A stretch of DNA of 64,000 bases, taken from NCBI RefSeq assembly GCF_022846255.1, contig NZ_AP025682.1; one strand, given 5' to 3'. This DNA is from Escherichia coli (GTDB lineage Bacteria; Pseudomonadota; Gammaproteobacteria; Enterobacterales; Enterobacteriaceae). The position numbers and the translations under genes were made by a program. Under the pieces are notes generated by a model. It did no database searches and was not told where the DNA came from. It saw only the letters and a list, made by a program, of their open reading frames with translations. This document shows positions 2,839-38,626 of the stretch, in pieces (positions within the stretch are counted from its first letter, which is position 1; each line of letters begins with the position of its first letter).

Positions 2839-3129
2839 TACCGTTGTCTCTCGTCCAGGTTTACTCCTGATAGAAAGTCATCGGCACTTGACGGTAATTA
2901 CTTATGACCAAAAACCTCTTTGCGTCACATTTTTACAACAATTATGGCAGAGAAGAATAATGCCATTGGAATGAAGAGAGTAACGAATGATTAAACTGGC
3001 AAACCCGAATGACGAAAAATTCTGGAAAACAGCACGCAATTTCGTCAGGTGATTATTTTCGTCCCTAAGGAAACCACATAGGATGCTCACGGGTGCCTGA
3101 GACTTTCTGTTTTCAGGCTAACCGGGAAT

Positions 3130-3200
3130 CAGAAAGACGAAGGCCCCGACCGATATTTCTATCAACCGAGGCCAACGAATGAACACAGCAATTCAGATCT
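3130..3200 (-). ncRNA. sokB: Putative Sok-type antisense RNA of the hokB locus (coordinates approximate)
   Basis: By analogy with hok/sok loci an antisense RNA is expected just upstream of hokB on the opposite strand; the minus strand here can form a stem (cgguugaua/uaucggucg with G-U pairs). Not verified by alignment. Confidence 0.25.
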
Positions 3201-3236
3201 TAGCCTCTTACCCGCCATCCGGCAAGGAGAAAGGCT

Positions 3237-3386
<150 letters not shown>

Positions 3387-3801: not shown

Positions 3802-3866
3802 CTTCCGATGTAGGCCCGTATTCTTCGCCTGTACCACGGGTCGGTTTTAGTACAGGCGTTTTCTTT
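3802..3866 (+). ncRNA. rydC: RydC small regulatory RNA
   Basis: cttccgatgtaggcccgtattcttcgcctgtaccacgggtcggttttagtacaggcgttttcttt matches the RydC sequence as recalled (one possible substitution); TATAAT -10 at 3791..3796; ends in hairpin plus U-run; lies between ydcA and cybB. Confidence 0.7.
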
Positions 3867-24242: not shown

Positions 24243-24270
24243 ATGCTCTGGATAAGGATCATCCAATTCT

Positions 24271-24380
24271 AAAAAAAAGCCCGGACGACTGTTCGGGCTT
24301 GTCTTCTTATATGTTGGAAAATCAGTAGCAATGCAATGGCCCAACAGAAAATAAAATCTGTGACAATAAAGGCATATAAC
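24271..24380 (-). ncRNA. micC: MicC small RNA (OmpC regulator)
   Basis: Minus strand reads gttatatgcctttattgtcacagattttattttctgttgggccattgcattgctactgattttccaacatataagaagacaagcccgaacagtcgtccgggctttttttt, matching MicC as recalled at all but about three positions; sits between ydbK and ompN and shares the gcccgg hairpin with the ydbK terminator. Confidence 0.7.
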
Positions 24381-24607
24381 CCGCGCAGAATAACGTATAG
24401 AAAATTAAAAGTATAATTTTTATTTTGTATGTGTTATCTCCAATACATTCACCAGACTTATTATCATTTCTGAAGAATTATTTAATTAAGGTTTTACTTA
24501 AGGCGTAACAAATGATATTTATCGGCTAACTGAACTTCTCCTTTAGGATGTTTTCACTCCCCAAAATGGGGATGAAAGGCAAATAAAATAACTAAAGGAT
24601 TTATTCA

Positions 24608-29703: not shown

Positions 29704-31077
29704 TTATTTTAATAACCGCACCCGGCACGTTTTTCCTTTAATCTTCCCACCCTGTAGCTGTTTCCATGCTTTATGAGCAACAGCCTGACGCACCGCGACA
29801 TAGACATGCGCCGGATGCACGGCAATTTTGCCAATATCTGCGCCATCAAGCCCGATGTCTCCTGTCAGCGCACCTAATACATCACCCGGGCGCATTTTGG
29901 CTTTTTTCCCGCCATCGATACACAACGTTGCCATTTCTGCTTTCAGCGGCACAATGGAACTATTTGCTGGCGGCGTTTGCCAGTTAAGTTTTATCTGCAA
30001 CATGTCAGAAATGATATTGGCCCGCTGTGCTTCTTCCGGGGCACAGAAACTGATCGCCAGACCGCTATTTCCTGCACGAGCTGTACGACCGATGCGATGT
30101 ACATGAACTTCAGGGTCCCACGCCAGCTCAAAGTTCACCACCAGCTCAAGCGATTTTATATCCAGACCACGCGCAGCAACATCAGTCGCGACCAGTACAC
30201 GGGCGCTACCGTTAGCAAAACGTACCAGGGTCTGATCGCGATCGCGTTGCTCCAGATCGCCGTGTAACGACAATGCACTTTGCCCTACTTCATTCAGCGC
30301 GTCACAGACAGCCTGGCAATCTTTTTTGGTATTGCAAAACACCACGCAAGAGGATGGCTGATGCAAGCTTAATAACCGTTGCAACAGAGGAATTTTGCCT
30401 TTGCTGGATGTCTCATAAAATTGTTGTTCAATAGGTGGCAGAGCATCTGTTGAGTCAATTTCAATCGCTAAAGGATCGCGTTGCACTCTTCCGCTGATTG
30501 CGGCAATGGCTTCCGGCCAGGTTGCCGAAAACAGAAGTGTCTGCCGAGATGCTGGCGCAAAACGGATGACATCATCAATGGCGTCACTAAATCCCATATC
30601 CAGCATGCGGTCGGCCTCATCCATCACCAGCGTATTCAACGCATCCAGTGATACAGTGCCTTTTTGCAGGTGATCCAGCAAACGGCCCGGCGTTGCCACG
30701 ATAATATGCGGCGCATGTTGCAACGAATCACGCTGCATACCGAACGGTTGACCACCGCACAACGTCAAAATTTTGGTATTTAGCAGAAAACGCGCCAGCC
30801 GACGCAATTCACCTGCCACCTGATCCGCCAGTTCACGCGTAGGACACAGCACTAAACCCTGGGTTTGAAATAGCGACACATCAATTTGCTGTAACAAGCC
30901 GAGGCCAAAAGCCGCCGTTTTGCCGCTGCCGGTTTTCGCCCGCACGCGAACATCTTTTCCGGCAAGGATCGCCGGAAGCGCGGCGGCCTGCACCGGCGTC
31001 ATGGTTAAATAACCCAACTCATTAAGGTTTGTGAGTTGGGCGGGAGGCAAAACATTCAGGGTAGAAAAAGCGGTCAC
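29704..31077 (-). CDS. dbpA: ATP-dependent 23S-rRNA-specific DEAD-box RNA helicase, 457 aa
   Basis: Q-motif, Walker A AKTGSGKT, DEAD box (VMDEADRMLDMGF), SAT, HRIGRTARAG motifs and C-terminal RNA-binding domain; GTG start at 31077. Confidence 0.95.
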   Translation of the reverse strand: MTAFSTLNVLPPAQLTNLNELGYLTMTPVQAAALPAILAGKDVRVRAKTGSGKTAAFGLGLLQQIDVSLFQTQGLVLCPTRELADQVAGELRRLARFLLNTKILTLCGGQPFGMQRDSLQHAPHIIVATPGRLLDHLQKGTVSLDALNTLVMDEADRMLDMGFSDAIDDVIRFAPASRQTLLFSATWPEAIAAISGRVQRDPLAIEIDSTDALPPIEQQFYETSSKGKIPLLQRLLSLHQPSSCVVFCNTKKDCQAVCDALNEVGQSALSLHGDLEQRDRDQTLVRFANGSARVLVATDVAARGLDIKSLELVVNFELAWDPEVHVHRIGRTARAGNSGLAISFCAPEEAQRANIISDMLQIKLNWQTPPANSSIVPLKAEMATLCIDGGKKAKMRPGDVLGALTGDIGLDGADIGKIAVHPAHVYVAVRQAVAHKAWKQLQGGKIKGKTCRVRLLK

Positions 31078-31106
31078 AATCTATTCTCGTGGTCATCGAC
31101 GCAAAG

Positions 31107-31280
31107 TCAGCAGGCGCGTATCCTCGCAGATCTACGCTCACGATGCGACAATTTAATCGGTTCTTCATCGGGTGGTGGGTCAGGCATGGGTTGCGGGCGA
31201 GGGATCGGATCAGGTACTGGAACAGGATCGCCAGGAATCGGTTCAGGGACAGGAATTTGCAAATAAATAAGTGTCGTCAT
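31107..31280 (-). CDS. Hypothetical 57 aa Xaa-Pro-repeat small protein upstream of dbpA (unverified)
   Basis: ATG preceded by GGAGGG at 4-nt spacing; hand translation MTTLIYLQIPVPEPIPGDPVPVPDPIPRPQPMPDPPPDEEPIKLSHRERRSARIRAC; in-frame stop just upstream; ends 30 bp before the dbpA start codon. Confidence 0.3.
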   Translation of the reverse strand: MTTLIYLQIPVPEPIPGDPVPVPDPIPRPQPMPDPPPDEEPIKLSHRERRSARIRAC

Positions 31281-31337
31281 ATTTCCCTCCGGTCATTGGG
31301 TGGACTCTTAAAGGGTAGACGCTGATAAATAACAGGC

Positions 31338-31459
31338 AAAAAAAAGCCGACTCATCAAAGTCGGCGTCGTACGAATCAATTGTGCTATGCAGTAATTCAA
31401 AAAAGGAAGTAAGACAATATGGAGCGCAACGCCCATCGCTTGACGTTGCATTCACCTGC
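31338..31459 (-). ncRNA. fnrS: FnrS small RNA (FNR-activated)
   Basis: Minus strand reads gcaggtgaatgcaacgtcaagcgatgggcgttgcgctccatattgtcttacttcctttttt...gccgactttgatgagtcggctttttttt, matching FnrS as recalled; ~122 nt; between zntB and dbpA. Confidence 0.75.
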
Positions 31460-31554: not shown

Positions 31555-32559
<1,005 letters not shown>

Positions 32560-32792
32560 TTATTTTGTAGTCTAGCCTTCTGGCCCTGTTACGCAACATC
32601 TCATCACCCCATTACCCTGAAATGATTAATAAAATTCTGTCTAAATTGAATACAAAAAGCAAAATGCTTTTCCGTATACAAACCGTGTGAAGTGTTAAAT
32701 AGCGTCTATCATTATCAGAATTATCTGATCATATGACGTGGCTTTTTTGCGATCGGATAGCAACAAAAATTGATAAAAATAATGGGATCTCA

Positions 32793-38324: not shown

Positions 38325-38420
38325 CACCGGTCACCAGGACCCCAGGCCGGATTTAAGACGAGGATGCACTGCTGTGTGTACTGTAGAGTCTGGCGGATGT
38401 CGACAGGCTCTATTTTTTTA
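38325..38420 (+). ncRNA. mcaS: McaS (IsrA) small RNA
   Basis: ...ggccggatttaagacgaggatgcactgctgtgtgtactgtagagtctggcggatgtcgacaggctctattttttt matches McaS as recalled, including GGA motifs and terminal hairpin plus U-run. Confidence 0.65.
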
Positions 38421-38626
38421 TTCATTTTTTAGCTCTGTAAATAACCACATTCTCGCCGGGATTGGGGAATGAGTGACGAGATCAGTGGTGTCTGGCGGCT
38501 ATCACGCCACAGAATCAAATAACGGATAGCCTACGGTAAAATTTCGCTGACTGGAATTATCCCACCCTCGATCCATGTGATGGCTTGCCCTCATTTCTTC
38601 AGGCAGAAAAATCAAAAAATCGCTTT

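Follow-up and report, generated by a model that had tools for sequence, protein, structure and literature searches.

The 57-codon open reading frame on the minus strand at positions 31107-31280 of the window (the whole stretch of Escherichia coli DNA analyzed, 64,000 nucleotides in length) is ynaL, a named and translated small-protein gene whose product belongs to the Pfam YnaL family. Comparative analysis of 41 ynaL loci, with 30 genomes forming a first set, showed that purifying selection acts strongly, at the protein level, on the acidic Xaa-Pro core of the product in both Enterobacteriaceae and Erwiniaceae. With regard to ynaL function, the comparative results argue against the view that the gene is just a leader of dbpA, tie it to fnrS across two bacterial families and expose a frozen nucleotide element. 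The reading that we favor, and hold with considerable though incomplete confidence, is that of a known, fnrS-linked gene maintained for its peptide and carrying, in Enterobacteriaceae, a dbpA-linked nucleotide element as well.

Identity, signals and composition of ynaL

The first-pass annotation had described the ORF as unannotated, which is incorrect. RefSeq annotates ynaL at the matching position in 5392 of 5426 complete E. coli genomes, and the K-12 counterpart (ynaL, b4743, 1409308-1409481), located between fnrS and dbpA, encodes a product named 'proline-rich small protein YnaL' (YP_009518775.1). Window positions convert to K-12 ones as 1409308 + (31280 - window position). The ORF product matched PF23677 ('Protein YnaL-like') over model positions 1-57 of 57 (E = 2.2e-40, 136.8 bits). 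PF23677 was carried by all database homologues of YnaL, and the family is narrow, with 36 matches among 1.84 billion cluster representatives. The window protein is identical to K-12 YnaL and to the published sequence; at the nucleotide level the window strain has a TGA stop where K-12 has TAA, two synonymous changes, and the Shine-Dalgarno (SD) sequence GGAGGG in place of the AGAGGG of K-12.

The earlier proposal that the ORF is translated agrees with published data. YnaL was detected by immunoblot of a chromosomal SPA-tag fusion, an assay that reports the synthesis and stability of the tagged protein and says nothing on function, and a tetracycline ribosome-profiling signal was reported for ynaL in the same study, which also proposed a ynaL-dbpA operon (VanOrsdel 2018, PMC6001520). 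No function, partner or phenotype of YnaL was reported in the literature searched, and the tables of Adams 2021 contain no entry for ynaL, dbpA or fnrS. As a discovery ynaL is of little weight, since the gene is named, a Pfam family exists and synthesis of the protein was shown in 2018.

The coding region and its signals are the following:

31107-31280, minus strand: ynaL coding sequence, 57 aa plus TGA stop (ORF call, RefSeq annotation and full-length PF23677 match)
31285-31290, minus strand: ynaL SD sequence GGAGGG, separated from the ATG by 4 nt (by 5 nt when only GGAGG is counted)
31158-31256, minus strand: Xaa-Pro repeat codons (residues 9-41) with the acidic core DPVPVPDPIPRPQPMPDPPPDEEP; the RNA is C-rich and G-poor
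31170-31178, minus strand: PPP codons (residues 35-37) in the context DPPPD, a predicted EF-P-dependent motif

Translation from the ATG at 31280 to the TGA at 31109-31107 gives the 57-aa product MTTLIYLQIPVPEPIPGDPVPVPDPIPRPQPMPDPPPDEEPIKLSHRERRSARIRAC. The ribosome binding site had been noted at first pass as strong; its spacing is good, at the short end of the range. A GGAGG-like SD and the ATG were kept across genera, and in the first set every one of the 30 genomes had the YnaL frame open, with SD and ATG conserved. These features, together with the dedicated Pfam match, indicate that the frame is more than a chance ORF.

Proline accounts for 16 of the 57 residues. A series of about 14 consecutive Xaa-Pro dipeptides had been described; the total of 14 is right, but the dipeptides form two runs, of 4 and 10, with one Gly between them. 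The Pro-codon stretch contains 40-47% C and 17% G. In the AlphaFold2 model of YnaL, residues 21-40 have pLDDT above 90 and show neither helix nor strand.

A small TonB-linker-like peptide had also been suggested; in this reading YnaL would be a membrane-tethered Pro-rich spacer. The Pro-rich spacer of TonB and YnaL both alternate Xaa and Pro and are both expected to form an extended rigid segment, weak compositional matches to the Pro-rich region of TonB were obtained (NCBIfam NF008084, E = 2.9e-4; Pfam TonB_N PF16031, E = 0.75), and the N-terminus of E. coli YnaL is mildly hydrophobic. However, the NF008084 match reached 20.8 bits where the curated cut-off is 315, and the N-terminus is the least conserved part of YnaL, being polar in many genera. 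The best 19-residue Kyte-Doolittle window reached only 0.63, far under the value of a membrane helix, indicating that YnaL has none. Unlike TonB, YnaL has no membrane anchor and no C-terminal TonB domain, the protein ending at residue 57. The likeness is compositional only, and a TonB-type role for YnaL is hardly credible.

Coding selection and linkage to fnrS

The YnaL frame gave a dN/dS of 0.18. Across the two families, the variable sites of the 18-codon core numbered 3, 2 and 17 at codon positions 1, 2 and 3, respectively. Wobble sites of the Xaa-Pro region are free to vary while the residues are fixed, also in the loci without adjacent dbpA, and the non-proline residues of the core are as strongly conserved as the prolines.

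The first-pass annotation had named the substitution pattern as a check on which frame is maintained. It was conceivable that the true gene is the Gly-rich ORF of the opposite strand (31036-31266, plus strand), or that neither frame is selected and the conservation belongs to the dbpA upstream region alone. The antisense Gly frame gave a dN/dS of 0.19, as low as that of the YnaL frame, an artefact that is expected because the two frames share wobble positions, so that dN/dS cannot separate them; nucleotide-level constraint does exist in the 3' third of ynaL. On the other hand, the Gly frame is interrupted by stop codons in 28 of 30 genomes, and these fall inside the core in most non-Escherichia genera (e.g. 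Salmonella, Citrobacter and Enterobacter), whereas SD, ATG and stop of the YnaL frame are all in place throughout the 30 genomes. The free synonymous change with fixed residues in the Pro core, even where dbpA is not adjacent, also stands against this alternative, as does the fact that a C-terminal tag in the YnaL frame yielded protein (VanOrsdel 2018, PMC6001520). The stop codons and the distribution of variable sites over codon positions show that the Pro frame is the one maintained; the Gly-rich ORF was rejected on the stop codons and the published tag, and the chance that it, or the absence of any selected frame, accounts for the data is negligible. Another ORF, in the +1 frame (31022-31168, minus strand) and running across the ynaL stop into dbpA, was rejected as well, the lengths of the spacers differing by non-multiples of 3 and the dN/dS being 2.1.

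Upstream of ynaL the following features were located:

31342-31459, minus strand: gene of the sRNA FnrS, upstream neighbour of ynaL without exception (Rfam RF01796, 134.8 bits)
31346-31365, minus strand: FnrS terminator stem (terminator scan)
31312-31339, minus strand: candidate sigma-70-like ynaL promoter, with -35 TTGCCT (31334-31339), a 16-nt spacer and -10 TACCCT (31312-31317), predicted transcription start at about 31305, from a phylogenetic footprint only

FnrS was found by Rfam directly upstream of ynaL in 9 of the 9 divergent loci scanned, and the same gene order was visible in the alignment of 16 genera. The distance from the FnrS terminator to ynaL was always 35-70 nt (36 nt in the Phytobacter ORF call). 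ynaL is tied to this sRNA gene across species. The -35 hexamer of the candidate promoter overlaps the end of the FnrS terminator T-run. Both hexamers are conserved, at exactly 16 nt from each other and with a variable sequence between them, in the window and in four other loci (L037, L039, L040 with TATTTT, and L042), and the equivalent site of Erwinia was called by the promoter scan (TTGCCA-17-TATGCT). In the window the candidate fell below the scan threshold, and the promoter would be weak in E. coli, with TACCCT as its -10.

Loci of dual-function sRNAs, which encode a small protein as well, are known, SgrS/SgrT being an example. The fnrS-ynaL pair resembles this type in that the regulatory sRNA gene and the small-protein ORF stay together as a tight unit, linked in all genomes examined, but differs from it in that the ynaL ORF lies outside the sRNA, past the intrinsic terminator of FnrS and behind a putative promoter of its own.

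We infer that the selected product is likely to be the YnaL peptide itself, acting in trans on a partner. YnaL would then be an extended, acidic rod of the polyproline-II type with a short basic tail, not anchored in the membrane, and it would be expressed from its own weak candidate promoter, with read-through of the fnrS terminator as a possible second source. A Pro-rich peptide such as this could also be conserved for an effect inside the ribosome during its own synthesis and not as a free protein, two situations that sequence conservation by itself cannot separate.

The ynaL-dbpA junction

Downstream of ynaL lie:

31078-31106, minus strand: ynaL-dbpA spacer, 29 nt, with a weak SD-like CGAGA at 31085-31089 and no terminator
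29704-31077, minus strand: dbpA, encoding the ATP-dependent RNA helicase DbpA (457 aa), with a GTG start at 31077; likely second cistron

The ORF had been placed just downstream of the FnrS terminator and 30 bp upstream of the dbpA GTG start. This location stands, except that the gap from stop to GTG counts 29 nt. No terminator was found between ynaL and dbpA in the scan of the window. The GTG start of dbpA was conserved in 30 of 30 loci of the first set, with GTG and CGAGA both kept, and the gap was 23-29 nt in these loci; Klebsiella, Raoultella, Kosakonia and Leclercia gave 14-30 nt. The spacer measured 14-30 nt in 34 of the 35 loci in which dbpA is adjacent; in the remaining one (L040), where ynaL ends early, it was 62 nt. 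The 29-nt gap, the GTG start, the weak SD and the lack of a terminator make a bicistronic, coupled arrangement plausible in E. coli, and we put the chance that ynaL is, in Escherichia and most Enterobacteriaceae, additionally the first cistron of a ynaL-dbpA transcript at slightly better than even. Since dbpA starts with GTG behind a weak SD, at 14-30 nt from the end of ynaL, part of its translation would probably depend on ribosomes fresh from ynaL.

In 6 of the 41 loci (two of Erwinia, one each of Mixta and Phytobacter, and two others) dbpA does not directly follow ynaL, which is still located beside fnrS. Four of these (L037, L039, L041 and L042) have the gene order zntB-fnrS-ynaL-ttcA(-), and the other two (L038 and L043) have ynaL-ttcA-dbpA. 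A hairpin lies past the ynaL stop in five of the six (L037, L039, L041, L042 and L043); that of L043, an Erwinia, ends in a T-run and is the one canonical stem with T-run among the five. The persistence of ynaL by fnrS without adjacent dbpA, with a hairpin after some copies, indicates that the gene is not merely a dbpA leader. The earlier suggestion of a translated leader retains a plausible coupled arrangement in E. coli, but it cannot describe the conserved role.

In its full form the leader proposal holds that ynaL is mainly cis-acting: ribosomes would slow at the consecutive-proline and Xaa-Pro codons when EF-P or prolyl-tRNA is short, and their position or flux on ynaL would set how much dbpA is expressed, by way of re-initiation, an RNA switch or access of Rho to the C-rich RNA; if true, DbpA, a helicase of 50S assembly, would be tied to translation capacity. 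Consecutive-proline motifs of the XPPX type stall ribosomes, and the stalling is relieved by EF-P. DPPPD brings together motifs that stall strongly according to the EF-P literature. The proposal is consistent with the 29-nt gap to a GTG-initiated, weak-SD dbpA without intervening terminator, with the C-rich, G-poor Pro-codon stretch, which is like that of rut sites, and with the presence of something dbpA-related in the 3' end of ynaL (the blocks B1 and B2 described below). Further support comes from the K. cowanii-type locus, in which the ynaL frame still extends past B1 before its stop, and, circumstantially, from the higher abundance of both DbpA and EF-P in exponential phase. Against it, the Pro-rich gene is kept in loci where dbpA does not directly follow, several of them with a hairpin after the stop, tagged YnaL accumulates (PMC6001520), and the non-Pro residues of the core are conserved like the prolines, which a pure codon sensor would not need. 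Alternative RNA structures found no support (0 covarying pairs; z-score of +0.42). The stall motif invoked at first pass is present in the window as DPPPD but is not universal, PPP being lost in 5 of 30 genomes; E. albertii and three Citrobacter genomes (including C. youngae) have DPSPD at this place, and C. amalonaticus has DPPQED. Taken together, the evidence makes a mainly cis-acting role of ynaL unlikely.

The closest precedent for a leader mechanism of dbpA is offered by mgtL and mgtP. In these leaders of mgtA and mgtCBR, respectively, in Salmonella, the speed of translation serves to sense proline, EF-P and Mg2+. Like ynaL, they are short Pro-rich ORFs with acidic Xaa-Pro repeats and a basic stretch after them, and they lie just before a larger co-directional gene; ynaL is placed directly before dbpA in 35 loci (the window showing no terminator between the two genes) and is not so placed in 6. 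Unlike mgtL and mgtP, ynaL encodes a product of 57 aa whose non-Pro residues are conserved and which accumulates when tagged, the gene is kept in several genera where dbpA is not its direct downstream neighbour, with a hairpin after some copies, and no alternative leader hairpins found statistical or covariation support.

Invariant blocks in the 3' third of ynaL

A side finding, beside the known gene, is an invariant element linked to dbpA and made up of two blocks:

31144-31160, minus strand: B1, CCGATTAAATTGTCGCA, 17 nt, codons P-I-K-L-S-H, synonymous sites frozen
31113-31130, minus strand: B2, TCTGCGAGGATACGCGCC, 18 nt, codons S-A-R-I-R-A, two of them rare (AGG and AUA) and a further rare one, AGA, directly before the block; synonymous sites frozen here too

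Of the 35 loci with dbpA directly after ynaL, 35 contain B1 (scored as present at up to 2 mismatches) and B2, and of the 6 other loci none does. The distance between their starts is exactly 30 nt in all 35 loci, with a spacer of 13 nt between the blocks, and the end of B2 lies 33-36 nt from the dbpA GTG, even where the ynaL stop moves. A single codon is used at 10 of 11 codons of the ynaL tail in 28 genomes, against 2.7% in dbpA (P = 2e-15), and in the Pro core single-codon usage is at background (1/16). B2 is retained although untranslated in L040, and it is read in other frames in the variant proteins P0123 and P0132. These results show that B1 and B2 overprint the 3' third of ynaL in exactly those genomes in which dbpA is adjacent, and that they are placed relative to the dbpA start and not to the ynaL stop.

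The conserved tail could also be read as that of an arrest peptide of the SecM/TnaC class, in which C-terminal residues of the nascent chain stall the ribosome near the stop codon and control downstream events. The tail (EEPIKLSH..RSARIRAC) is strongly conserved and adjoins the dbpA start, it contains rare codons (AGA, AGG and AUA) that do not vary, and a second YnaL subfamily, which ends in DPPPH[RM]-stop, again has prolines near the stop. An arrest peptide is, however, selected for its amino acids and not for its nucleotides, and the YnaL tail is conserved at the nucleotide level, persisting where it is untranslated (L040) or read in other frames. In addition, the tails of the two subfamilies are unrelated, full-length tagged YnaL accumulates (PMC6001520), and four loci of the second subfamily have no co-directional gene directly downstream, ttcA being convergent there. 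An arrest function of the YnaL nascent chain is thus very unlikely.

Several candidate explanations of the blocks were tried and rejected. The consensus RNA fold contained 0 covarying pairs, and the single-sequence z-score was +0.42. Pairing of B1 with the dbpA start as a translational sequestrator was discarded, the duplex of -11.4 kcal/mol being matched by 17% of shuffles, start accessibility being unchanged and covariation absent. Mimicry of the DbpA target in 23S rRNA (hairpin 92 region) was dismissed on alignments to domain V and to the whole 23S that were no better than those of shuffles. For a B2 hairpin with a GGA loop as a CsrA site, the Potts 2017 tables, read without their column labels, gave no support; the row after the FnrS CLIP peak is azoR, no entry for ynaL was found and the csrA expression table lists dbpA as 'NS' only. 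A sigma-70 promoter for dbpA inside ynaL was also rejected (the scan was negative and, by eye, B2 is without TAnnnT and the TAAAWT of B1 is without a usable -35), as were sigma-54, sigma-E, sigma-28 and sigma-32 promoters, the consensuses of which fail on spacing or conservation.

The position and distribution of the blocks suggest that B1/B2 may control dbpA expression at the RNA or DNA level. A wider scheme, in which the B1/B2 overprint and translation of the Pro-rich ynaL would together set DbpA synthesis, gated by elongation capacity (EF-P, prolyl-tRNA or the rare Arg and Ile tRNAs), with the ancestral peptide as a trans-acting partner of the anaerobic fnrS locus, seems to us improbable. 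The regulation of dbpA has, to our knowledge, barely been studied; B1 and B2, which travel only with the ynaL-dbpA junction, provide a precise 35-nt target (17 + 18) for it.

Identity of the Xaa-Pro ORF as ynaL

The sequence features recorded in the first-pass annotation (ORF, ribosome-binding site, FnrS, dbpA start and Xaa-Pro repeats) were all present. The product, MTTLIYLQIPVPEPIPGDPVPVPDPIPRPQPMPDPPPDEEPIKLSHRERRSARIRAC, contains 16 prolines and its Xaa-Pro dipeptides fall into two runs, of 4 and 10.

Features of the fnrS-ynaL-dbpA region
31342-31459, minus: fnrS sRNA gene (Rfam RF01796, 134.8 bits)
31346-31365, minus: FnrS terminator stem
31334-31339 (-35) and 31312-31317 (-10), minus: putative ynaL sigma-70 promoter, from phylogenetic inference
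31285-31290, minus: Shine-Dalgarno GGAGGG of ynaL, 4 nt 5' of the ATG
31280 (ATG) to 31107, minus: ynaL ORF, 57 residues, TGA stop
31144-31160, minus: nucleotide block B1, CCGATTAAA(T/A)TGTCGCA, invariant or nearly so
31113-31130, minus: nucleotide block B2, TCTG(C/A)GAGGATACGCGCC, invariant or nearly so
29704-31077, minus: dbpA, 457-aa DEAD-box helicase, GTG start 29 nt beyond the ynaL TGA

The ORF had been described as unannotated, which proved incorrect: it is ynaL in RefSeq, matches a Pfam family (YnaL, PF23677) over its full length (E=2.2e-40) and is a published gene. Megablast matched the region in 5392 of 5426 complete E. coli genomes, with an annotated CDS named 'protein YnaL' or 'proline-rich small protein YnaL' beneath the match. 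The K-12 MG1655 gene (b4743, YP_009518775.1, 1409308-1409481) has exactly the extent of the window ORF and encodes an identical protein, and the ynaL coordinates of one further annotated record equal those of the ORF. VanOrsdel et al. 2018 (PMC6001520) reported ynaL with this exact sequence between fnrS and dbpA and remarked on a possible ynaL-dbpA operon. The tagged fusion and the initiation-complex profiling proposed as checks had therefore already been published, both with positive outcome: YnaL was detected in LB cultures by a chromosomal SPA tag, and a tetracycline ribosome-profiling screen had scored the ORF positive without identifying it (PMC6001520). Our literature search found no other paper treating ynaL biologically, and no function is reported in that one. 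The ORF is thus an already known gene; the observation was confirmed and its interpretation partly supported.

In every respect that could be tested the ORF belonged to the YnaL family. The suggestion of a TonB-linker-like peptide failed, as anchor and C-terminal domain are absent and the TonB score was 20.8 bits against a 315-bit cut-off.

Selection on the Xaa-Pro frame

Orthologous loci were collected from 29 genomes, one per species, and 11 more were added by exact-protein look-up. The YnaL frame was open in 30/30 genomes of the first set, with the ATG, a GGAGG-like Shine-Dalgarno sequence and the stop conserved, and third codon positions had about threefold the entropy of first and second ones. 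The first-pass annotation had held that selection on the opposite-strand Gly-rich frame, or on neither frame, would count against the ORF. Over the ungapped core, dN/dS (Nei-Gojobori) was 0.18 for the YnaL frame and 0.19 for the Gly-rich frame, and above 1 in the remaining four; since the Gly-rich frame shares its wobble positions with the YnaL frame, its value is low as well, and dN/dS alone cannot settle the question. ORF integrity ruled out the Gly-rich frame as the selected one: stop codons interrupt it in 28/30 genomes and, in Salmonella, Citrobacter and Enterobacter, several fall within the core. The published C-terminal tag is also in the Pro frame (PMC6001520). ynaL is translated, and its Pro-rich core is selected at the protein level.

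Word-indexed and exhaustive profile searches showed the family to be small, with 162 clusters at 90% identity and matches to 36 of 1.84 billion cluster representatives. Its members split into two subfamilies. The first (Escherichia, Salmonella, Citrobacter, Enterobacter, Klebsiella, Raoultella, Kosakonia, Leclercia, Lelliottia and others) ends in EEPIKLSHxxRSARIRAC; the second (Erwinia, Mixta, Phytobacter, Scandinavium and others) keeps the core SDPvPTDPVPiPDPIPxPQPxPDP and ends in DPxPxPIxDPPPH[RM]. The 18-codon core common to both had 3 variable sites at first, 2 at second and 17 at third codon positions, a pattern indicating that selection acts on the amino-acid sequence of the core, non-proline residues included. 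Repeat length changes in frame: E. coli E69 (locus L009, 2501-2641) has lost 11 codons and the Salmonella enterica variant P0053 has duplicated 10 residues (PDPRPHPQPM), as expected from slippage between direct CCN-rich repeats.

Neighbours of ynaL and the B1/B2 element

All loci examined had zntB and fnrS immediately upstream of ynaL. Directly downstream, dbpA followed in 35 loci (gap 14-62 nt) but not in six: convergent ttcA follows ynaL in four (L037, L039, Mixta L041 and Phytobacter L042), and ttcA lies between ynaL and dbpA in the two Erwinia loci, L038 and L043. Five of these six have a hairpin 3' of the ynaL stop, that of L043 being a canonical stem with T-run; ynaL thus persists where dbpA is not its immediate downstream neighbour. 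This shows that ynaL is linked to fnrS and is not confined to genomes with adjacent dbpA. Relative to the literature searched, the linkage across two families and the loci where dbpA does not directly follow appear to be new, as does the B1/B2 element.

Synonymous sites vary freely in the Pro-rich core but not in the ynaL tail. With conserved-residue codons of dbpA from the same 28 genomes as background, a single codon was used throughout at 10/11 tail positions compared with 2.7% in dbpA (binomial P=2e-15), whereas the Pro core was at background (1/16). The frozen codons form B1 and B2, separated by a hypervariable stretch. Both blocks occurred in 35/35 loci with dbpA directly following and in 0/6 of the others, always 30 nt apart (start to start, 35/35), and B2 ended 33-36 nt before the dbpA GTG, a distance unchanged in Klebsiella and Raoultella although ynaL extends five codons further there. 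In L040, from a genome labelled Salmonella enterica with a YnaL of Kosakonia cowanii type, ynaL ends right after B1, and B2 is conserved though it lies in untranslated spacer; in variant proteins P0123 and P0132, B2 is read in other frames. Upstream of the relocated Erwinia dbpA the sequence is unrelated. The dbpA-linked presence, fixed spacing and untranslated or other-frame B2 therefore show B1/B2 to be a nucleotide-level element linked to the ynaL-dbpA junction, and not a peptide requirement.

Several identities considered for the element found no support. Pairing of B1 with the start of dbpA had zero covariation and was no better than shuffles, and likeness to the 23S rRNA region that DbpA targets was at chance level. 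CsrA CLIP and expression tables gave no support for a CsrA site in B2, and no promoter consensus fitted convincingly within the blocks by scan or inspection. A +1-frame 48-codon ORF (31022-31168, minus), starting at the ATG inside GATGAAGAA and crossing the ynaL stop and dbpA start, reads B2 as DLRGYAPA; spacer differences that are not multiples of 3 and a dN/dS of about 2 show this ORF not to be conserved.

FnrS itself (K-12 1409142-1409250) has a CsrA CLIP-seq peak in the supplementary tables of Potts 2017, where CsrA alone lacked high-affinity binding to FnrS by EMSA. A 47-codon ORF at 31308-31451 (minus; MQRQAMGVALHIVLLPFLNYCIAQLIRTTPT...) is merely a translation of FnrS, and gene callers joined the FnrS frame to the downstream YnaL homologue in P0146 (106 aa) of at least one public genome, an annotation artefact. 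At 32552-32599 (minus), 13 nt 5' of zntB, lies a 15-codon ORF whose product is that of the annotated K-12 mini-protein YnaN (b4773), a further very short upstream ORF in this region.

Transcription and possible roles of ynaL

The interval from the FnrS terminator to the Shine-Dalgarno sequence is mostly variable; the exceptions are TTGCC, where the T-run ends, and, exactly 16 nt on, CTACCCT. This spacing was kept in the window, L037, L039, L040 (TATTTT) and L042. At the equivalent Erwinia site the promoter scan called TTGCCA-17-TATGCT; in the scan of the window the E. coli site was below threshold. We read the pair as a weak candidate sigma-70 promoter for ynaL, and read-through of the fnrS terminator may be an additional route of transcription.

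An AlphaFold2 model from the family alignment was extended, its core lacking helix or strand, with pLDDT >90 at residues 21-40 and a pTM of 0.22, in keeping with a rod-like and not a globular shape. The N-terminus is not conserved and its hydrophobicity is too low for a membrane helix. The peptide is probably a short acidic segment of polyproline-II type with a basic tail, acting in trans on a partner. In Enterobacteriaceae we lean slightly towards ynaL also being the upstream cistron of dbpA, whose GTG start and weak CGAGA Shine-Dalgarno sequence suggest a partial reliance on ribosomes coming off ynaL. The Pro codons are C-rich and G-poor (C 40-47%, G 17%), a composition that would lend itself to Rho loading in an untranslated ynaL and would fit polarity on dbpA.

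The proline-codon ORFs mgtL and mgtP are the closest functional precedent for a leader. In composition and position YnaL is similar to them, but its length is different, its non-proline residues are conserved, it accumulates as a protein, and it is retained in loci where dbpA does not come next. Reading YnaL as an arrest peptide fails because the tail conservation sits in nucleotides, not in the peptide. The earlier proposal that EF-P-dependent stalling at consecutive prolines couples dbpA to translation status could apply in E. coli, since strong stalling is predicted at DPPPD; as the main function of ynaL it is improbable, given that PPP is lost in E. albertii, three Citrobacter genomes including C. 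youngae, and C. amalonaticus, and that in some loci dbpA does not follow ynaL. With these comparative results, both what ynaL does and how dbpA is regulated can be tested directly.

DbpA of the window differs from that of K-12 at seven residues (Q46R, A67V, A74G, P99L, A376V, T377P and E379K), Q46R lying two residues before the Walker A motif AKTGSGKT. Elsewhere in the window sok of the hok/sok locus (3091-3242, plus), RydC (3802-3865, plus), MicC (24263-24383, minus) and McaS (38326-38421, plus) pass Rfam gathering scores.
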